Virus record (IMG/VR): IMGVR_UViG_3300013093_000004
Location: 1 to 54,866 of that record
DNA: 54,866 bases
DNA from: a virus
Lineage: Duplodnaviria > Caudoviricetes
Strand: one strand, 5' to 3'
Of this stretch, positions 37,042 to 54,866 are shown one piece after another. Position numbers and translations under genes: made by a program. Numbering within the stretch: the stretch's first letter is position 1; each line of letters opens with the position of its first letter. A model generated the notes under the pieces. That model was not told the origin of the DNA, did no database searches, and was given only the letters and a program-made list of their open reading frames with translations.

Positions 37042-37085
37042 TGATCACCTCACTCTTGATCGACTTTTGATCGTTGCCCCTGCCC

Positions 37086-37106
37086 TTGCGTGTCTTTTGC
37101 GTGAAA
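37086..37106. promoter_or_regulatory. Putative integrase arm-type sites, left of core
   Basis: TTGCGTGT and TTTTGCGTGA, matching the pair at 37319-37339. Confidence 0.55.
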
Positions 37107-37197
37107 CTCGCGCAAAAAGCGGGTTTGTTCTTCTATTGTTCTCAATGCGGTAATGGCAAAAACCGCAGAAATCCGCCAAAAAATCATGCAAGCTGTG

Positions 37198-37244
37198 CGT
37201 TGACATCGTAGGGGTCGCAAGTTCAATCCTTGCTACGCCCACCA
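37198..37244 (+). mobile_element. attP core: 3' half of tRNA-Val(GAC)
   Basis: Anticodon loop TTGACAT, T-arm GCAAG-TTCAATC-CTTGC, acceptor strand ending CCA; no 5' half; next to integrase. Confidence 0.9.
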
Positions 37245-37255
37245 TCGTTTAAAAG

Positions 37256-37287: not shown

Positions 37288-38607
37288 TTATGCGCGCAAG
37301 ACTGTTACATTGGCGTCCTTTTGCGTGAGTTTTGCGTGAAGTGCCGGGCCGGCGGCCTTGGTCAGGTCGGCGACGATATCGTTGATGCCGTCGCGCACCG
37401 TGGCCAGATAGCCCGGATCAAAGATCGCGTAGCGGCTGCTGGTCTTGCTGATCACGCGGTGGCCCAGCGCCATTTCGAGCTGCACCAGGTCAACGCCGCG
37501 GTTGGCCAAGATCGTGGCCATGCTGTGGCGAATAAGCTTTGGGCCCCACCCGTCGGGGATGCCCAGCTGCGCGCGGGCGCTGGTCCAGCCTGACCGAATG
37601 CCATCGACCGGGGTTTGCGTAGTGATCTCAACCTTGCGCCGATCGTCATAGCGGGTCGATTCGCGGCAGACGAACCATTCATCGGTCGCGTGCAGCCAAT
37701 TGGCCAGCAGCGGCACCACGGGCACGATCGGGCGCACCTTCTTGGTCTGGATCCGGCCGGCTGGGTTCAACGCAAACAGGCCGTGATCGCGCAGCCATTG
37801 CTCGCGCGCCGGCGCCACGCTCATGTCCAGGATCGCATCAGGCCGGGCCAGCGTGCAGATCGCGGCGATCAGGTAGCGGCGCAGTGGCATCAGGATCGCG
37901 CCGTGGCCGGCGTAGCGCCCTGCCCCGCGCAAACTGTAATCCAGCAGCTCGGCAATCGATTCGACCGACAGGCGATAGGTGCGCTGCGGCGTGACCTGGT
38001 CGCGCGTCTTGTGGGCCAGCGGAGGCACGTATTTGGTGCGGCGGGCGCGCCATGCGTGATTCAGCGCGGCTTTGAGCTGGATCACGCTCTCTTCGACGGT
38101 GCTGGCGCTGCGCGGGCGCGATTGGCCGGCGATCCAGTTGCCGGCGGCGTCCTTTTTGCGCGCGACGATTGGATCAGCGATCGCCCAGGCACGAAACCGG
38201 TCCAGCAGGCGGTCATCGATATGGTCGGGCAGTAACTGGTCGGGGATGCGGCCGGCCGCTTCTTCGATGTCCAGAAACCGCACCAGCAGCTTGATGCGCG
38301 CCTTGATCGGGTCTGCACTGGGCAGATGGCGGCCGTGTTCCTGCCAATAGTCGTTCAGCGCCGCGTGGACGGTATAAACGTCCTGTTCGGCTGGGGTTGC
38401 GCGGTGCGTCGCCAGGTAATGCTGATCGAGCGCGTCGCAGGCTACGCGAACGTCTGCCGTGCGCGTGCTTTTGCGCTGTTGTCGGCCGGCGGCGGCATCA
38501 TACCACCAGATGTACCACCGATCGCTGGCGGGTCGGCCGTCGCCGCCGCGGACGAGGTCAAGCCAGAACGGGCCCCGCTGATAGACGCCACCCTTGATTG
38601 CCGACAT
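37288..38607 (-). CDS. int: Tyrosine integrase
   Basis: TLARPDAI (R), PKLIRHSMAT, LGH, SRYA (Y); N-terminal arm-binding-like RQQRKSTRT. Confidence 0.92.
   Translation of the reverse strand: MSAIKGGVYQRGPFWLDLVRGGDGRPASDRWYIWWYDAAAGRQQRKSTRTADVRVACDALDQHYLATHRATPAEQDVYTVHAALNDYWQEHGRHLPSADPIKARIKLLVRFLDIEEAAGRIPDQLLPDHIDDRLLDRFRAWAIADPIVARKKDAAGNWIAGQSRPRSASTVEESVIQLKAALNHAWRARRTKYVPPLAHKTRDQVTPQRTYRLSVESIAELLDYSLRGAGRYAGHGAILMPLRRYLIAAICTLARPDAILDMSVAPAREQWLRDHGLFALNPAGRIQTKKVRPIVPVVPLLANWLHATDEWFVCRESTRYDDRRKVEITTQTPVDGIRSGWTSARAQLGIPDGWGPKLIRHSMATILANRGVDLVQLEMALGHRVISKTSSRYAIFDPGYLATVRDGINDIVADLTKAAGPALHAKLTQKDANVTVLRA
37319..37339. promoter_or_regulatory. Putative integrase arm-type sites, right of core
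   Basis: Tandem TTTTGCGTGA x2 inside the integrase 3' end. Confidence 0.6.
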
Positions 38608-38777: not shown

Positions 38778-38998
38778 CGCGCGGCCATCCTCTTGCGCTT
38801 TGGCTGATGCTGTCGGGTAATGGAGACGGTCTTTCCGAGCATCGACGGACTGAAAATCACGCTATCGCCTTTCACGCTATAATCGACGCCCTTGGTCAGC
38901 GGTTGGCCATTGCAAGACACGGTGATCTCCGGCGACGGCTGATGGAATTCGTTCCACCATTGTGCGACAGCGCGCGCGACGATCATTCGGTGCATCAT
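38774..38998 (-). CDS. Small protein with Ig-like LTKGVDYSV motif
   Basis: ATGA overlaps on both sides. Confidence 0.55.
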   Translation of the reverse strand: MMHRMIVARAVAQWWNEFHQPSPEITVSCNGQPLTKGVDYSVKGDSVIFSPSMLGKTVSITRQHQPKRKRMAAR

Positions 38999-39567
38999 CG
39001 CGCTGCCCTCCACAAAATCGGTTGCTGATCGGCTGGGATACGGTGCGCGCCGCGCGCCAGCGGGTGTTTCGGCGCGCCAGCGGCGGTTTTGCCCCAGCAC
39101 CACAGATCGGGGTATGGCCCCTCGCCGAACTGGATTTCTTCAACCACGTGTTCGATCCAGTCTTGGTCGCGGGCGATCGCGCCCCAGCAGACAAAGACCT
39201 GGCGAGCGTGCTTGGCCTCGATGCGCAGCACGTCGAGGTTGGTGTAATAGAGTTCGTCGCGCGCGCTCCAGTTCACCCCGCCGTTGATTTCGTCAACGAT
39301 ACGATAGACGTCGTGCGGATCGGCGCTGCACCATGGGTAGAGATTGACCGCGACATAGCCTCCGAATCCATAGAGCGCGAACCAACGGTTCCACCATCGG
39401 CTGGTCGGATCATCCTTTGTGCCGTCAGCAGCGGACGGGTTGTGGCCGATGACGCACGCGATCGGACCCGGCGCCCATTTGCGATAGAGGCGCAGGCGGT
39501 TGCGACCGTGAAAATCAGCGCGGCGTTCGGTGACCGGCTGGCCAAACAGGTCAAGGGGGTCAGTCAT
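38995..39567 (-). CDS. DUF1643-family protein
   Basis: LYRKW...VIGHNPSAAD..DDPT...VNLY...WG...PKHPL. Confidence 0.88.
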   Translation of the reverse strand: MTDPLDLFGQPVTERRADFHGRNRLRLYRKWAPGPIACVIGHNPSAADGTKDDPTSRWWNRWFALYGFGGYVAVNLYPWCSADPHDVYRIVDEINGGVNWSARDELYYTNLDVLRIEAKHARQVFVCWGAIARDQDWIEHVVEEIQFGEGPYPDLWCWGKTAAGAPKHPLARGAHRIPADQQPILWRAAR

Positions 39568-39688: not shown

Positions 39689-39900
39689 GCGTCACCGCCT
39701 TTCGAGGCTGCGATAACGCCGCGAACAGAGGGCAAGATGGGTTCGCGGTTCAACGCGGTAATTGCCTGTTGGTCCAAAGGGGAGCGCGCCCAATCAAACT
39801 TCGGAAGGGCAAATTCGGCAATGTCAGCGTACCGGCTGCAAGCCTCCACCAGCCCCGCATTGACCGCCCGCAGCCGCGCGCGCTTGTCGGTGTCAATCAT
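39685..39900 (-). CDS. Hypothetical protein
   Basis: GAGG RBS; ATGA overlaps. Confidence 0.55.
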   Translation of the reverse strand: MIDTDKRARLRAVNAGLVEACSRYADIAEFALPKFDWARSPLDQQAITALNREPILPSVRGVIAASKGGDA

Positions 39901-40184
39901 GACTTCACCTCGTCGGTTTTGGCGAACACCACGCGCGCCGACCATGCGTCGGCGCCGCGCGAATGCTGGGGGAACTTGTGGCGATCGAGCGCGGCGCTGA
40001 GCGCGCGGTAACAGCCCGGCGGTCCGCCTCTGTTTGGCGCGTTGTGGCTGGCGGGATCCGGGTAGAGCTTTTCGGCCAGTTGATCGAAGCGCATCGAGCC
40101 GCCGGCGGCGACCAGCGCGGCCTGAATGCGGTCTTTGATCGGCAGCTTGCGCGCGCGATAGCTGGGGTGCCAAGCGCGGGTCAT
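39897..40184 (-). CDS. Hypothetical protein (winged-helix-like)
   Basis: Operon packing. Confidence 0.55.
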   Translation of the reverse strand: MTRAWHPSYRARKLPIKDRIQAALVAAGGSMRFDQLAEKLYPDPASHNAPNRGGPPGCYRALSAALDRHKFPQHSRGADAWSARVVFAKTDEVKS

Positions 40185-40822
40185 GCGGCATTTGCCGGAT
40201 AATCATCGGCGCGTTCAAGCCGGCGGCGACACGGCGCGATCCAGTCGAAGCGCGTCCCCTCTTCGCCCATGATCCACACCAGCCACGCATAGGCCGTCGC
40301 GGTCGATCCTTCGGGCGCCAACCGGCCCTTGTGCATCACGACGCGTTCGGTGAATTGCAGCACATGGGTCGGGGGGTTCTTGGCAAACAGCCGCTCGTAA
40401 CGCCCCTGCCCTTCCAAAAACGCTGCGCGCACGATCATGGCGACGCCGCACTCGCTGGTAAGGAACGCGCGCTCGATGAACTGCTCGGCCAGCTTGAACG
40501 GCGGATTGGTGATGGTCCAATCGACAGGCCGGGGCGGCGGCCCAAACAGATAATCTTGGACCAAGTAGCCCGCGCCATAATCATGCACGTCGCTGGCGAT
40601 CACGCACCCGAAATACTCGGCCAGCGGCTTGACCATGTGGCCGCGATTCGCTGCCGGTTCGCGCGCGGTCATGTCGTTCCAATCTTCCGGCTCGACGCAC
40701 CAGTTTGCGCGCAGCCATTCGCACAACGCGCGGGTGGCCCAAGGCGGCGTAGGAAAATCGTCCAAGCTGTCGTGCGGCTCGACGCGGCGCTGCATGACGG
40801 CGGTGCTACGGTTCTGGGTCAT
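40181..40822 (-). CDS. Small N6-adenine (amino) DNA methyltransferase
   Basis: DDFPTPPWAT, EPAANRGHM (motif I-like), ITNPPF (motif IV). Confidence 0.85.
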   Translation of the reverse strand: MTQNRSTAVMQRRVEPHDSLDDFPTPPWATRALCEWLRANWCVEPEDWNDMTAREPAANRGHMVKPLAEYFGCVIASDVHDYGAGYLVQDYLFGPPPRPVDWTITNPPFKLAEQFIERAFLTSECGVAMIVRAAFLEGQGRYERLFAKNPPTHVLQFTERVVMHKGRLAPEGSTATAYAWLVWIMGEEGTRFDWIAPCRRRLERADDYPANAA

Positions 40823-42006
40823 GATCCGACCAACTCCCTGAAAAGGATCGGCTGGGTCGATCCATCGCCATAGACCGTATCGAGCCACAGATCGGCGCGC
40901 GGTTCATCACCATCCCAGCGGTCCGGGAAAGTGCCGGCGGCGATCAGTTCGCGAATGCGGGCCTCTTCTTCGGGGTTGATCAGGTCGACTTGCGCGCGCG
41001 CTTGAATATCGAGAATGCGCTCCAATGCCTCGCTGCGCGCTTCAAGCGTCAATGGCCCCATGCGCTGGGGGTTTTTGCCGATGCTGCCATCCTTCAGCCG
41101 CTCCACGCCGCGCTTGCGCAGGCGCTGCTTCGGCTGGCGCATCCAGCGATAGATCGGCTTCAATTCCAAAAGCGGCGCCAGATGCGCCCAGGCCGGCATC
41201 GCGATGATGTTTTCCAGCGCGGTGTCGCGTTGCGCGAGCGGGCAGCCGATGCAGCCGGTGCGCGCGTTGATCTCAGTCGCATCGTCGCCGCCATAGGCAT
41301 CGGCAAGGATTTGCGTCGGCCACCCGCCGAATTCTGGCATCGGCGCGTAGACCTTCAGCCAATCCCAGATCCAGCACACCCGCCAATGCAGCAGCGGCGC
41401 GAGTGTGGCGATCCGGCCCTTGACGCCCTTCGCTTCGGGCAAGATTTGCTGATACCAACCCTGGCCGCACTCGGCGCCGTCTTTTGAGCATGACATGGCG
41501 ATGCGGCCGTCGCGGATCGCGCTTTCGCCTTGGCGCACACCGGTGAGCATCAGCGCGGTGCCGGGCAAAGCGGCCATGGCGTCGATAAGCGCGCTGGCCA
41601 TCGGCTCGACTTTGATCTGGCGGGTGCACCAACGCAGCGTGTTGTTGTTCGGCGGCGGCACACCACGGCCCAAGATGTAGACCATGAACCGCTTGTCGAG
41701 CGGCGCGCGCACGATGTGCAGCCGGATCCAGTTGATGCCGCGCAGCATGGCCATGATCTGTTCGGCGCTGCGCTGGATCGGCGGCAATTCCTGCCGCGTG
41801 TCGGCATAGAAGACGTGCAACACCTCCGGCTGGGGCAACAAGCCGGCCTGAATCAGATGAACCACGATCGTCAGCAGCGCGGTGCTGTCTTTGCCGCCGG
41901 ACCAGGCCAAAGCATAGTGCTGGTGGTTGCCCCAATAGGCGCGAAGTGACTGCAATGTCAGTTCGACGCCTTCGGCATGCACTGCCTGAATGCTGATATC
42001 GCTCAT
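40819..42006 (-). CDS. PAPS-reductase-family protein, DndC-like
   Basis: WSGGKDS PP-loop, DTRQE, LGRGVPPP..RWCTRQIKVEP, GVRQGES, RTGCIGC, GPLTLEAR. Confidence 0.88.
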   Translation of the reverse strand: MSDISIQAVHAEGVELTLQSLRAYWGNHQHYALAWSGGKDSTALLTIVVHLIQAGLLPQPEVLHVFYADTRQELPPIQRSAEQIMAMLRGINWIRLHIVRAPLDKRFMVYILGRGVPPPNNNTLRWCTRQIKVEPMASALIDAMAALPGTALMLTGVRQGESAIRDGRIAMSCSKDGAECGQGWYQQILPEAKGVKGRIATLAPLLHWRVCWIWDWLKVYAPMPEFGGWPTQILADAYGGDDATEINARTGCIGCPLAQRDTALENIIAMPAWAHLAPLLELKPIYRWMRQPKQRLRKRGVERLKDGSIGKNPQRMGPLTLEARSEALERILDIQARAQVDLINPEEEARIRELIAAGTFPDRWDGDEPRADLWLDTVYGDGSTQPILFRELVGS

Positions 42007-42254
42007 GCCAGCCCTGCCCGGCGCAGCCAGTCGGCCAGCTTCGCCTCGACCTGCGCGCGCGCGTCTTCGACGGTCTTTGCGGTGCGCCAAATGGCGGTGT
42101 GGTGATCCAAATCGAAAAACCAAGCCGGCTGGGATTTGTGGCCGCCACGTTCCAATACGCGGCCGACCGGAACCTCGCCCAGATAGAGCAATTCGAGGCT
42201 GCACCACGGGCGCCAGGCAATGTTCGCCGGCAGGGTGACTGGGCGGGCGGTCAC
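42003..42254 (-). CDS. Hypothetical protein
   Basis: GTG start overlapping upstream stop. Confidence 0.55.
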   Translation of the reverse strand: MTARPVTLPANIAWRPWCSLELLYLGEVPVGRVLERGGHKSQPAWFFDLDHHTAIWRTAKTVEDARAQVEAKLADWLRRAGLA

Positions 42255-42493
42255 GCCAGCACCCGCGCGATGTGGTTGGCGTACACCCCGACCGCTTTCC
42301 AATAGAGGGCCATGGGCGCCTTATGGGTGGCCCAACACTTGGCCGCGCGGCCCCTCGCATCGTCCCTGATCGCCAACAGGACGGCACGCACCCGTTGGCG
42401 TTCGGCTGGGGTCAGTTCGACCAATGCAAGTTTGGCCGCCTGCAAGCCGAGGATGGGGTTGCGCACCTCGCGGCGCGCCGAACGGTCGCTCAT
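42251..42493 (-). CDS. Hypothetical phage protein
   Basis: VRNPILGL...HKAPMALYWK. Confidence 0.65.
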   Translation of the reverse strand: MSDRSARREVRNPILGLQAAKLALVELTPAERQRVRAVLLAIRDDARGRAAKCWATHKAPMALYWKAVGVYANHIARVLA

Positions 42494-43754: not shown

Positions 43755-43919
43755 TCATTCCACCACCTCGAAATTCCGGGTGCGGTAATTGGTGCGAGCG
43801 ACTTCGGCCTCGATCTGGGCGAGCGTCATCACCTCGGTCTTGACCGTGCGACCGCCGCCGGGGGTGACCACGAAGAATTCAACGCGGTAACGGGTGTTGG
43901 GGTTTGCGCGGCGGGTCAT
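43755..43919 (-). CDS. Hypothetical protein
   Basis: ATGA overlap with ACP-like gene. Confidence 0.5.
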   Translation of the reverse strand: MTRRANPNTRYRVEFFVVTPGGGRTVKTEVMTLAQIEAEVARTNYRTRNFEVVE

Positions 43920-44146
43920 GCTGTGGTGGTTTCCATGGTGGCGATCACGTCGGCGATGGTGCGCCATTGTTCGAGCGTGGTGTCGCTGATGCGGATATCG
44001 AGCTGGTCTTCCAGCTCCATGGCGATGCATTGACGGTCCAGGCCATCGAGGCCCAGATCATCGATCAAAGTGGCCGCTTCGAACGGCTGGTCGCAGATGG
44101 TGACGTCCGCGATGACCGCGCGCAGGGTTTCCAGCGGATCAGGCAT
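43916..44146 (-). CDS. Acyl-carrier-protein-like protein (Gly in place of the attachment Ser)
   Basis: 76 aa, acidic; LIDDLGLDGLDRQCIAMELEDQLDIRISD...TIADVI. Confidence 0.8.
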   Translation of the reverse strand: MPDPLETLRAVIADVTICDQPFEAATLIDDLGLDGLDRQCIAMELEDQLDIRISDTTLEQWRTIADVIATMETTTA

Positions 44147-44630: not shown

Positions 44631-45246
44631 CGAGCACGCTCCTGACTTGGTGATAGAATTCGATGAACCGCCGGGCCGCTTCGTCGGCTGGCCACGGATC
44701 GATGACGAAATCGAATGGTTCGATGCCGCTGATCGCCCGCCACTTGTCGAAATTGGCGTGAGGCATCAGATCGCGCTTTTCGGTCGCCAGCATCCGCAGG
44801 TCATAGCGTTTGACCAGGGCATGGTGATTGTGCCCCACTTCAAAGCGCGCATCGATGGCGTGCGCGCTCCGCTTGATCAGCGCGCGCAGTTCGGCTGGCA
44901 AAAGCGATTTGGCTGGGCTGGGAAAATCGCCCCACACCACCTCGTCGCTTTCATGCATCAGGCCCTGATAGATCGCCGGCCACGAATGACCTTCGCGCGC
45001 CATCTGCCGCGCCAGCAACACGCAATGCTGCGCCACGAAATAGAGCATGCGCCGGCCCGGCACGCGGTTGGGACCGACAGCTTCGCGCGTCTGGCCGGAA
45101 AAGCGCGGACGCAGCAAACCCCAGGCATAATCCTCGATCGTCATCGCCGCTGCATCGGGGGTGACGAAATCGAAATAGGCGCCATCGCCCAGCATGATCG
45201 TCGGGCCGCTGATCCGGCGTGCGGCTGGTGCGGCCTGATCAGGCAT
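44620..45246 (-). CDS. HD-domain phosphohydrolase (YfbR/YfdR-like)
   Basis: RFSGQT, YFVAQHCV, LMHESDE..WGD..SPAK, DLRMLATEKRDL. Confidence 0.8.
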   Translation of the reverse strand: MPDQAAPAARRISGPTIMLGDGAYFDFVTPDAAAMTIEDYAWGLLRPRFSGQTREAVGPNRVPGRRMLYFVAQHCVLLARQMAREGHSWPAIYQGLMHESDEVVWGDFPSPAKSLLPAELRALIKRSAHAIDARFEVGHNHHALVKRYDLRMLATEKRDLMPHANFDKWRAISGIEPFDFVIDPWPADEAARRFIEFYHQVRSVLDAR

Positions 45247-46336
45247 GGGGCACCGCCGGCAGACCGTTGTGCTCGACGCCGTCCAGCAGGCGGCCGGCGC
45301 GCGCTTTGCCGACGGCGCTCAACAACGTAACGCTGCGTCCATGGCCGGCGTATGCCCGCCTTGGATTTATCATCTCGATCGCGCCACACGCACAATCACG
45401 AGCCCCATCAGCGATCGGGATCGTATAACTATCCGGCGCCCACTCTCCCCACTGCTTAAAATGAAACGGCACGCCAGCGGCGGCGCACTGGTCGCGCAGC
45501 GATCGAGCCCAGTCCGGGTGCATCGGTCGGGCGCCGGGGCCGCTTTCGCCGCCGACGATTACCCAGTCGATAGTTGGGTCAAACGCCCAATTTCCATCAG
45601 CGGACGGAATTGAATACCGCCATGATGCGTCAGATGGGCAATTTTGGCACCGATATTCCGGTTCGCCACCGCAGCAGGCACCGGTTGGGTCAAGCCATTG
45701 CAACAAATCGATTTCGCCCAGCAGTGGTTCGCATGACAGGAACCGCACCCATGCCGGCGTAGCCAGCAAGTCGGGGATTCGTTCTTCGGCGCGCTGCTGG
45801 TCCTCGACGCTGACACCAAGCCAGACATTCGGGAGCGGCCACCATGCAGCGCCTGGCCGAATGTGCGGCAGCGGCACCACCACGAGTTTGTCGCCGCGCT
45901 CACGCCTGATCTTGATTGCCGCGTCGGCGATGCGACCTACCGCCCCGGCCATGTATTCCCGCATCCGCGCGCTGCGCTTGGTCAGGATCATGTGCGTGTG
46001 GTGCGGGGTCAGCGCGCAGACCGCAAAAACCCGGTCGATCCATGCGTCGGGCACCGCCAGGTGAAACAGATCGCCGTGCGCGTTCCAGAAAATCCGGCGC
46101 GGGCGTTTCCATGCCAGCGGTTGCATCAGCGCCGGCTCGTGCAAGCGCACGCGGCCGCTCCACACCGGTCCGGCTTTGGTGTCGATCGTCAATCCTTCGC
46201 GGGTCGGGTGGTGCTTCAACCGCGTGCCGGCAAGGCGCATGGCGTAGCAGTTCGTGCAGCCCGGCGAGACCACCGAGCAACCGTTGATGGCGTTGACCGT
46301 GGCATCGGCCCATTCGATTTTGGTGTTGTCGGACAT
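45239..46336 (-). CDS. DUF5131 / phage Gp37-Gp68 family (CxxxxxxCxxC, radical-SAM-like)
   Basis: TKIEWAD..NAINGCSVVSPGCTNCYA, LTKR, NVWLGVSVE, SCEPLLG, WVIVGGESG, FHFKQWG. Confidence 0.92.
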   Translation of the reverse strand: MSDNTKIEWADATVNAINGCSVVSPGCTNCYAMRLAGTRLKHHPTREGLTIDTKAGPVWSGRVRLHEPALMQPLAWKRPRRIFWNAHGDLFHLAVPDAWIDRVFAVCALTPHHTHMILTKRSARMREYMAGAVGRIADAAIKIRRERGDKLVVVPLPHIRPGAAWWPLPNVWLGVSVEDQQRAEERIPDLLATPAWVRFLSCEPLLGEIDLLQWLDPTGACCGGEPEYRCQNCPSDASWRYSIPSADGNWAFDPTIDWVIVGGESGPGARPMHPDWARSLRDQCAAAGVPFHFKQWGEWAPDSYTIPIADGARDCACGAIEMINPRRAYAGHGRSVTLLSAVGKARAGRLLDGVEHNGLPAVPHA

Positions 46337-54672: not shown

Positions 54673-54866
54673 GCGCCCGGGCGGAATTGCGCGCGCGGCG
54701 CGTGTTGCGGGCGATGCAGGCCGAAATGCACCGCCAGGTGAGAGAAGGCACGCTGATCAGCGCCAGCACGGTCGATCATGACGGCCGCATGGTGATCGAG
54801 GGCAAGGTCGACATGGCCATGCTGGCGCTGGTGACCGAGCGCGTGCTGTTGCAGGAAATCTATCAC
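54669..54866 (+). CDS. Hypothetical protein spanning the circular junction (stop TGA at 139-141)
   Basis: GTG at 54669 reads through the terminal overlap to a stop overlapping ATG 138. Confidence 0.6.
   Translation, partial: MSARAELRARRVLRAMQAEMHRQVREGTLISASTVDHDGRMVIEGKVDMAMLALVTERVLLQEIYH
54744..54866. repeat. Terminal direct repeat, copy 2
   Basis: Identical to 1-123. Confidence 0.97.

Follow-up and report, generated by a model that had tools for sequence, protein, structure and literature searches.

A candidate DNA-modifying enzyme of DndC type, encoded beside an adenine-type methyltransferase in a complete temperate phage genome

In viromics, phage genes named as phosphoadenosine phosphosulfate (PAPS) reductases are as a rule classed among the auxiliary metabolic genes for sulfur, and the question raised by one such gene is whether it serves sulfate assimilation or the modification of nucleic acid. 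The gene is located in the virus record IMGVR_UViG_3300013093_000004 (Duplodnaviria; Caudoviricetes), which is the window analyzed here at its full length. This 54,866-bp record ends in direct terminal repeats and is rated 100% complete, so that it represents an entire phage genome. The gene encodes a 395-amino acid (aa) protein (P0001) and is followed directly by the gene of a 213-aa methyltransferase (P0002). A sequence-only reading of this DNA had described a lone DndC-like protein translationally coupled to an adenine methyltransferase, and had proposed a phage self-modification pair with a minimal phosphorothioation/adenylation writer, or a decoy against Dnd/Ssp restriction, with sulfate assimilation considered unlikely. 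The start codons of the two genes are backed by homologues of the same length, one of 395 aa at 95% identity and one of 213 aa at 87%.

The 395-aa protein features SGGKDS, ILGRGVPPPNNNTLRWCTRQIKVEP, GVRQGESAIRDGR, RTGCIGC, GPLTLEAR, and LINPEEEARIR, and all of the motifs beyond the PP-loop that had been ascribed to DndC are present, at positions shared with 12–15 of 15 canonical DndC proteins. These counts come from a local-pair alignment with 40 family, 15 canonical DndC, and 10 SspD rows. The shared positions comprise SGGKDS, DT..E, G.G, RWCT..K..P, G.R..ES..R, P204, Y238, and R.GC..C, as well as D261, R295, G317, R324, E347, and I351. They are mostly kept in 36–40 of the 40 family rows (E347 in 29), and this near-invariance points to purifying selection at catalytic positions. 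Judged by motif conservation, the protein is catalytically intact. The motifs that it has in common with DndC/DptC (SGGKDS, RWCT, G.R..ES..R, R.GC..C, GP.T..R, and E...I) and three shared cysteines lie within residues 24–350, and the approximately 135 C-terminal residues beyond the CysH-like part also align with DndC.

Profile searches place the protein in the same way. The NCBIfam DndC profile (TIGR03183) matches residues 24–350 with 92.8 bits (E 2.2e-26, profile positions 9–345 of 447), and a six-frame search gave 88.4 bits. The PADLOC models for DndC (94.8 bits, E 1.4e-27), BrxP (49.6 bits), and SspD (38.5 bits) all match the protein, and the MTase_II model also matches its PAPS part; in the tally over the 68 open reading frames (ORFs) of the phage, each of these four models matches one protein, and the identical matches were seen for the 395-aa protein. 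The Pfam PAPS_reduct profile matches residues 31–218 with 36 bits (cut-off 22.5), which does not discriminate CysH-type proteins from others because this domain is common to the whole superfamily. The phage family PHROG 12882, which carries the name phosphoadenosine phosphosulfate reductase, matches residues 7–389 with 693.2 bits (E 1.9e-208, profile positions 12–403 of 404). On these comparisons, the likeness to DndC is far beyond chance.

Phylogenetic placement against DndC, SspD, and CysH had been suggested as a check and was carried out with an IQ-TREE quick search (84 rows, 366 columns, CysH as outgroup), in which branch support is by the Shimodaira–Hasegawa-like approximate likelihood-ratio test only and the program warned of long branches. 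The references were 14 DndC proteins that exceed the cut-off, taken from 401 Pseudomonadota genomes, an annotated DndC of a Salmonella dndBCDE cluster, 10 SspD, 9 CysH-type, 5 CysD-type, and 6 intermediate-scoring proteins. NF005316/PRK06850 match the same proteins as the DndC model. BrxP and TdpC are absent from the tree, and a BrxP search of the 401 Pseudomonadota genomes returned none at E <= 1e-30. The tree features a clade of 70 rows (support 99, starred) that unites DndC, SspD, and the phage family, with the CysH rows (9 rows, 96, starred) and the CysD rows (5 rows, 99, starred) outside of it. Inside this clade DndC (15 rows, 93), SspD (10 rows, 100, starred), and the phage family (99, starred) are separate, and the branching order among the three is not resolved. 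The phage clade consists of 38 of the 39 family rows and the protein of Thermus phage Tsatsa. By sequence and tree, the 395-aa protein is thus DndC-type and not CysH-type, and it belongs to a clade of its own, PHROG 12882, which is a large phage- and prophage-borne sister family of DndC and SspD.

Some other proteins branch close to this clade; for 7 basal clade members, the proteins clustered with them bear no informative names. The family row P0259 and two 346-aa chromosomal proteins (L188:1468-2508 and L242:1708-2748, with 203–238 bits to TIGR03183) adjoin the phage clade and fall just outside of it. Proteins of 588–643 aa (L239:1458-3224, L240:1290-3221, and L241:1429-3258), which feature a PAPS domain and a long C-terminal part that has no Pfam match, branch at the base of the DndC/SspD/phage clade.

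The three cysteines that the protein shares with DndC are C127 of the RWCT motif and C252 and C255 of the GCIGC motif, which from their conservation are presumed to be [4Fe-4S] ligands. The model of a cluster ligated by three cysteines is borrowed from TtuA/NcsA chemistry. The AlphaFold2 (AF2) model of the protein has a mean predicted local distance difference test score (pLDDT) of 88.1 and a predicted template modeling score of 0.87. Foldseek matched it to adenosine phosphosulfate (APS)/PAPS reductases, CysD, the PAPS domain of flavin adenine dinucleotide (FAD) synthase, and GMP synthetases (E 4.6e-5 to 2e-3 over ~225 columns), and VIA-align gave Z scores of 14.4 for CysD, 13.7 for FAD synthase, 13.3 for plant APS reductase, 11.5 for NcsA, and 9.8 for TtuA. 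These matches are confined to residues 1 to ~261, the PP-loop ATP pyrophosphatase fold, and neither program found a solved structure that matches the whole 395-aa protein. Querying the PDB by sequence, both with the protein itself and with a profile of 39 rows, returned no DndC-type entry, the best match being the PAPS domain of FAD synthase.

The protein stands alone in the phage. Among the 68 ORFs, PADLOC models gave no DndA, DndB, DndD, DndE, SspA, SspB, SspC, or BrxC match and no BrxZ or BrxL partner. Six-frame searches of the whole phage found neither PF00266 (IscS/DndA) nor TIGR03185 (DndD); TIGR03184 (DndE) was not found either, which is a weak negative, since the DndE control was silent in every control genome. 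The earlier statement that no dndA, dndD, dndE, or ssp gene is present therefore holds, with the case for DndE being the weaker one. The same is found in related loci, of which 80 viral loci (64–86% identity) and 80 genomic loci (48–82% identity) were surveyed. Searches by tblastn with Salmonella DndB, DndD, and DndE matched 0, 0, and 0 of the viral loci and 0, 1, and 0 of the genomic loci. The missing DndD, DndE, and IscS in the phage, the near absence of DndB, DndD, and DndE in the loci, and the lack of a constant neighbor suggest that the enzyme would work alone or with host factors.

There are several differences between this protein and the characterized systems. Canonical DndC is mostly 436–557 aa long, compared with 395 aa here, and 14 of the 15 aligned DndC rows extend 18–77 residues past the C-terminal end of the phage protein. 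Canonical DndC is also encoded together with DndD, an ABC ATPase, and DndE, whereas the phage protein has no DndB, DndD, or DndE neighbors. SspD and BrxP share the PP-loop core and the same three cysteines; however, the SspD match covers residues 32–169 only, with a score far below the 278–461 bits of the 12 strongest genomic SspD proteins, and 9–10 of the 10 SspD rows are gapped at the D261, R295, and G317 columns. The BrxP model has 779 positions, of which only positions 112–259 match the protein.

A single-gene writer of DNA phosphorothioate (PT) is reportedly known from the Tdp system (An et al., 2025, Nat Chem Biol). In the available part of PMC12914056, tdpC alone is stated to suffice for PT, so this DndC-type protein serves as a working model for the lone enzyme; the restriction partners tdpA and tdpB would not be expected in a phage. 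The same portion describes a BREX type 4 system in which BrxP and BrxC write PT, and in which BrxP is a PAPS domain fused to an SspB-like DUF4007 domain, unlike the short phage protein. The Thermus phage Tsatsa gene, whose product falls in the clade of the window protein, is discussed in the accessible text of PMC11437467, where its function is left open. According to the part available of the preprint by Piel et al. (10.1101/2021.05.05.442762), transfer of the Vibrio phage 44E38.1 gene p0018, a PAPS-Dam fusion, together with an adjacent gene of unknown function, resulted in escape from Dnd. This precedent combines a phage PAPS-reductase-type domain with an N6-adenine methylase in an anti-defense region, as in the window; however, p0018 is a single 479-aa polypeptide (PAPS at aa 4–175, Dam at aa 299–470), whereas the window features two ORFs, an enzyme with a long DndC-like C-terminal half, and a gamma-type methylase, and the two were likened by description only. 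Further excerpts state that PAPS reductases lie in Aca-regulated anti-defense operons, with Piel 2022 cited for Dnd evasion (PMC13551039), that lone "DndC/SspD" and MTase_II matches occur in Sinorhizobium prophages (PMC12429752), and that DndC has no known close PP-loop ATPase as a possible substitute (PMC10853773). Prophage PAPS reductases are read as sulfur metabolism genes in the portion seen of a 2026 Bifidobacterium preprint. Apart from the Vibrio phage fusion, the literature search found no tested function for lone phage DndC-like proteins.

The conserved catalytic positions, the kinship with DndC and SspD, the lack of co-located partners, and the DNA-modification neighborhood described below taken together best support an active adenylating sulfur-transfer enzyme. 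In the mechanism proposed, the PP-loop would adenylate a nucleic-acid substrate, sulfur would be carried on the three-cysteine [4Fe-4S] cluster after loading by the host cysteine desulfurase (IscS), and the sulfur would displace adenosine monophosphate. The product on phage DNA would be a PT or a closely related sulfur mark made without DndD and DndE, as by the single-gene TdpC, and the gene would act as anti-restriction cargo of the early operon. The extra cysteine loop of the family (see below) might, speculatively, form a built-in sulfur relay. The adjacent gamma-class N6-adenine methylase, which has no target-recognition domain, would independently add a second protective mark, N6-methyladenine (m6A), with the two genes co-transcribed and translationally coupled like their neighbors without being an obligate pair. 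Whether the protein is an active nucleic-acid-modifying anti-restriction enzyme is a question on which the evidence is about evenly poised. True PT writing, as in the minimal writer put forward earlier, is a plausible but tentative proposal that we hold to be distinctly less probable, and it is doubtful, at a similar or slightly lower level, that PHROG 12882 as a whole consists of self-sufficient single-polypeptide DNA sulfur writers that need host IscS alone and make PT, or another sulfur or backbone mark by way of the cysteine loop.

Several observations weigh against the proposal of a DndC-like sulfur writer. The score on TIGR03183 reaches approximately one third of the equivalog cut-off of 290.4 bits, compared with 284–682 bits for genomic DndC proteins, and the protein falls outside the canonical DndC clade; the description as a lone DndC-like protein stands in that the protein is of DndC type and alone in a complete phage, but not in the sense of a member of DndC proper. 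The extra cysteines C173, C180, and C211 are kept in 38–39 of the 40 family rows and are replaced or gapped in DndC (the C173 column holds E in 6 of the 15 canonical proteins and the C180 column is a gap in 14), which suggests that the chemistry of the family may differ from that of DndC. The loop that contains C173 and C180 adjoins a low-confidence stretch of the AF2 model (residues 161–171, pLDDT < 50). No DNA-binding or target-recognition domain was recognized, with residues 262–395 barely probed and giving no informative structural match. TdpC was likened to the enzyme by description only, and the function of PHROG 12882 is read from sequence comparison. Liquid chromatography–mass spectrometry detected no PT in isolates from the gut that have a PAPS-reductase gene alone, with no nucleoside triphosphatase (NTPase), and the authors' reading, in the available part of PMC12914056, is that an NTPase partner is required. 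Canonical DndC is absent from 47 of 54 lysogens, and the methylase adjacency could reflect only a shared cargo hot-spot.

The methylase features DDFPTPPW, REPAANRG, and TNPPF. The order FPTPP, EPAANRG, NPPF, which we take to be motifs X, I, and IV, consists of residues that are invariant or nearly so in 31 relatives. PHROG 799, named DNA methyltransferase, matches the protein with an E value of 7.3e-55, and there is no Pfam match (Pfam Dam included) and no NCBIfam match. The AF2 model (pLDDT 73.6) shows a single Rossmann-type domain and no separate target-recognition domain. Foldseek matched it to M.TaqI, M.BseCI, CamA, and type I M subunits at E 1.7e-6 to 1e-4 (M.TaqI 2.9e-6, with a TM score on the query of 0.53; M.BseCI 1e-5), the top row being an unnamed class I methyltransferase; the targets are 383–610 residues long, and only their catalytic domain aligns. 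The motif order and these matches point to an N6-adenine methylase of the gamma class that retains the catalytic domain alone, which bears out the adenine type assigned earlier. Small RNA m6A methylases (METTL5 and TrmM) match the model about equally well, so DNA as the substrate is suggested by the phage context and the PHROG 799 name. More than 6400 relatives were found, mostly named "hypothetical protein".

The two genes overlap at the junction GGATCATGACCC, in which the methylase ATG (40822-40820) lies over the enzyme TGA (40821-40819). The overlap of stop and start had been noted correctly, and it had been read as a sign of a pair. Such stop/start overlaps are the rule across the operon, so the coupling of the two genes is genuine but not specific to them. 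Among the related loci, the methylase type of the window was matched in none of the 80 viral ones and in 4 of the 80 genomic ones, and only 2 of the 160 have it directly adjacent. These two are divergent prophages with methylases that are 47–52% identical, one with the methylase upstream (L110) and one with it downstream (L135). They were considered as candidate methylase–enzyme fusions and rejected, as the methylase frames end before or begin after the enzyme gene. Rhizobium phage RHph_N28_2 is the one phage record that has both families, ~1 kb apart.

Methylases of other classes are found more often. By tblastn, six methylase queries matched 62 of the 160 flanks, 31 each among the 80 viral and the 80 genomic loci, and the other 98 flanks have no match to any of the six; these are raw counts. 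Pfam tallies were made on candidate neighbor ORFs of 84 loci, 116 upstream and 108 downstream, and so count ORFs and not loci. The upstream candidates include 14 C5 and 4 N6_N4 methylases, 4 DUF5131, 1 DUF4942, and 1 Methyltransf_23, and the downstream candidates include 5 N6_N4 and 2 C5 methylases and 2 DUF5131, the rest being primase-polymerase, D5-type helicase, integrase, and similar genes. Methyltransferase-domain ORFs number 18 upstream and 7 downstream, and the most frequent neighbor cluster is present in at most 16 of 85 loci. The commonest immediate neighbors of the DndC-like gene are methylases of several classes, and the pairing seen in the window is loose, one combination among many and not a conserved unit. 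The proposed self-modification pair thus keeps an anti-Dnd precedent, the Vibrio PAPS-Dam fusion as far as the accessible text of its preprint describes it, and loses the status of a conserved unit. A search for longer, fused forms gave 3 proteins, 2 of which have methylase domains: P0125 is PAPS plus N6_N4, and P0124 is C5 plus the DndC-like half. Each fused form is a single-member cluster, so gene-call read-through is possible. The 580-aa protein P0175 features DUF6884 (106.5 bits) fused to the PAPS_reduct domain of the DndC-like family.

The family is widespread. Of 8000 candidates that were scored, 5187 proteins match at E <= 1e-3, and at 50% identity the family has 1170 clusters (136 at E <= 1e-30). 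The public name of the relatives is phosphoadenosine phosphosulfate reductase, and an Atlas search returned no labels beyond PAPS reductase and DndC. The 16 phage records include Microcystis phage Mae-JY29 (79.5% identity), Pseudomonas phages Dobby, phiC725A, and D14A, Rhizobium phages RR1-A and RHph_N28_2, and Thermus phage Tsatsa. Relatives span Alpha-, Beta-, and Gammaproteobacteria, and prophage copies are found in Sphingomonadales, Rhizobiales, Burkholderiales, Pseudomonas, Bacteroidota, Ktedonobacteria, Acidobacteria, and a cyanobacterium; a Thermus thermophilus control genome gave no DndC-type match. In the 54 lysogen genomes searched (G001–G004 and G405–G454, with 26 of the 80 lysogens outside of this search), canonical DndC scoring above the cut-off turned up in none of the first 4 and in 7 of the other 50, in total 7 of 54, compared with 15 of 401 background Pseudomonadota. 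The odds ratio is 3.8 (Fisher p 0.009), with the taxonomy of the lysogens unmatched to that of the background. The lysogens that have no canonical DndC indicate that the function is not tied to Dnd hosts. One of the genomes (G442) features three DndC-like copies, all of which are below the cut-off.

These data allow the alternatives to a self-sufficient sulfur writer to be weighed. A CysH-type PAPS/APS reductase, carried as an auxiliary metabolic gene for host sulfate assimilation, is suggested by the PAPS_reduct match, by the public names, and by an N-terminal fold that resembles APS/PAPS reductases and CysD. There is, however, no CysH model among the NCBIfam matches at E <= 0.01, starred branches separate CysH and CysD from the protein, and the C-terminal half is DndC-like. 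The sequence has no C-terminal tail of the ECGLH type, which presumably marks such reductases, and no sulfate-assimilation genes are found among the Pfam families listed for the phage (25 of 33). This explanation is effectively excluded, in agreement with the sequence-only reading. A modifier of RNA or nucleotides, that is, a PP-loop/Fe-S thiolase or amidotransferase that acts on tRNA, phage transcripts, or the nucleotide pool, deserves more attention and is still improbable. In fold, the protein is roughly as similar to [4Fe-4S] tRNA thiolases and TilS as to sulfate-pathway enzymes (Z 10.6–11.5), TtuA and NcsA share with it a cluster-based sulfur-transfer logic (Z 9.8–11.5), DndC does not have the extra cysteines, and the DNA-binding domain that a DNA modifier might feature was not recognized, in a protein whose C-terminal 135 residues are barely probed. 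The sequence match to TtuA and NcsA is marginal, however (E 0.2–0.4 in the profile search), and these enzymes differ in substrate and context; the nearest characterized relatives by sequence and tree are DndC and SspD, the commonest neighbors are DNA methylases and replication genes, and the fusions are to DNA methylase domains.

The methylase and the host raise two further alternatives. The enzyme and the methylase could form an obligate complex, a two-component writer in which one partner would provide the other with DNA recognition or with a substrate that is flipped or primed. The ATGA coupling, the missing target-recognition domain of the methylase, the fusions of PAPS-type and methylase domains (among them the Vibrio phage protein, in the part of its preprint that is available), and the proximity of the two families in L110 and L135, in either order, and in RHph_N28_2 are in its favor. 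An obligate complex is nevertheless improbable: the partner varies in class (C5, N6_N4, or gamma) and in side or is missing altogether, the methylase family is found in 501 phage records across many hosts and the DndC-like family in 16, the enzyme gene of Thermus phage Tsatsa has no annotated methylase nearby, and the ATGA overlaps are operon-wide. An interfering protein would stand in for host DndC/SspD, DndDE, or IscS, or titrate them, with the result that phage DNA obtains host-type marks or host restriction is disabled. The sole functional precedent, in the available portion of its source, is an anti-Dnd phenotype with no known mechanism, surfaces of DndC are shared along most of the protein, and canonical DndC is enriched in lysogens. 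Against this, a pure decoy would have no need of the catalytic motifs, which hardly vary throughout a very large family, canonical DndC is missing from most of the lysogens, and the number of clusters at 50% identity is a wider spread than a Dnd-only counter-measure suggests. We regard interference as quite unlikely, and the decoy that had been put forward against Dnd/Ssp restriction fits poorly. The preferred reading remains a lone sulfur-transfer enzyme, with both genes being common phage cargo that probably marks phage DNA against host restriction.

The case is an ordinary member of a widespread and already catalogued phage family with a partial experimental precedent, and its biochemistry is that suggested by sequence. 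The window adds a clean complete-genome example and nothing unusual beyond this. It does matter for annotation, as a large clade of phage "PAPS reductases" belongs with DndC and SspD and not with CysH. If the clade writes PT alone, it would provide a compact PT-installing tool and a general phage counter-defense. Backbone modification would then be a widespread anti-restriction strategy in phages of Proteobacteria, Bacteroidota, Chloroflexota, and Thermus, and the recurrent methylase neighbors and fusions would give a dual-mark system. If the clade does not write PT, its conserved Fe-S/PP-loop chemistry would still be a question for enzymology.

Table 1. Positions of the DndC-like gene, the methylase gene, their motifs, and neighboring genes in the window
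Feature	Coordinates	Strand	Basis
DndC-like PP-loop/Fe-S-type enzyme (P0001), 395 aa	40819..42006	-	Translation; PHROG 12882 member
PP-loop SGGKDS, residues 36-41, ATP pyrophosphatase signature	41884..41901	-	39-40/40 family, 15/15 DndC, 8-10/10 SspD
RWCT motif with Cys127	41623..41634	-	C127 in 40/40 family, 15/15 DndC, 10/10 SspD
Family-specific loop CSKDGAECG (Cys173, Cys180)	41464..41490	-	C173 in 38/40, C180 in 39/40 family rows
GCIGC motif with Cys252 and Cys255	41242..41256	-	40/40 family, 15/15 DndC, 10/10 SspD
ATGA start/stop overlap, DndC-like/methylase	40819..40822	-	Sequence
Small orphan N6-adenine-type DNA methyltransferase (P0002), 213 aa	40181..40822	-	PHROG 799, fold
NPPF catalytic motif (motif IV)	40496..40507	-	N106, P107, P108, F109 invariant in 31 aligned relatives
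99-aa ORF (orf99), upstream	42003..42302	-	TGA overlaps DndC-like ATG (ATGA)
95-aa ORF (orf95), downstream	39897..40184	-	ATG overlaps methylase TGA (ATGA)
DUF5131 (Gp37/Gp68) protein	45239-46336	-	314.8 bits, Pfam
ACP-like 76-aa ORF	43916-44146	-	Pfam PP-binding, 30.5 bits
DUF1643	38995-39567	-	73.5 bits, Pfam

The phage is temperate. Its terminal direct repeat is exact and 123 bp long (1-123 and 54744-54866), in agreement with the "direct terminal repeats" class of the record. The plus strand carries the structural genes (terminase, portal, capsid, and tape measure). The integrase lies at 37288-38607 on the minus strand and is followed by the minus-strand early operon that holds the DndC-like gene and the methylase. 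The order of the operon is DUF5131, orf208, orf163, an acyl carrier protein (ACP)-like gene, orf91, an HNH endonuclease, orf80, orf99, the DndC-like gene, the methylase, orf95, DUF1643, and the integrase. ATGA overlaps are found at four junctions (HNH/orf80, orf99/DndC-like, DndC-like/methylase, and methylase/orf95), and overlaps of 8–11 nt join the DUF5131, orf208, orf163, and ACP-like genes. Neither of the small ORFs that flank the pair is a conserved partner: orf99 has no Pfam match, and tblastn detected it in just 1 of the 80 viral and none of the 80 genomic loci, and orf95 has no Pfam match and was found in 0 of 160.

DUF5131, a group listed in the radical S-adenosylmethionine superfamily (PMC9477430), recurs close to the DndC-like gene, in 15 of the viral and 13 of the genomic loci (80 each), and is an immediate-neighbor candidate in 6 cases; it may be a second recurring partner or part of a shared cargo region. 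For DUF1643, which also recurs there, the corresponding counts are 7 viral and 5 genomic loci, out of 80 each. The ACP-like gene is the last of the four-gene overlapping chain and has no homologue in the 160 related loci. Its product reads DLGLDGLD, with a glycine at what we take, from the usual ACP motif LGxDSL, to be the position of the phosphopantetheine serine. ARAGORN found no complete tRNA in the window, and a spurious ORF beside the integrase (37045-37245, minus strand) reads GVARIELATPTMS, which presumably resembles a translated 3' part of a tRNA and may be an attP core. Among the 68 ORFs, PADLOC also matched the candidate-defense models PDC-M41B (3.2e-64), PDC-M30B (4e-60), and PDC-S48 (5.4e-28), as well as a DEDDh exonuclease (1.6e-22) and CARF3 (2.2e-6).

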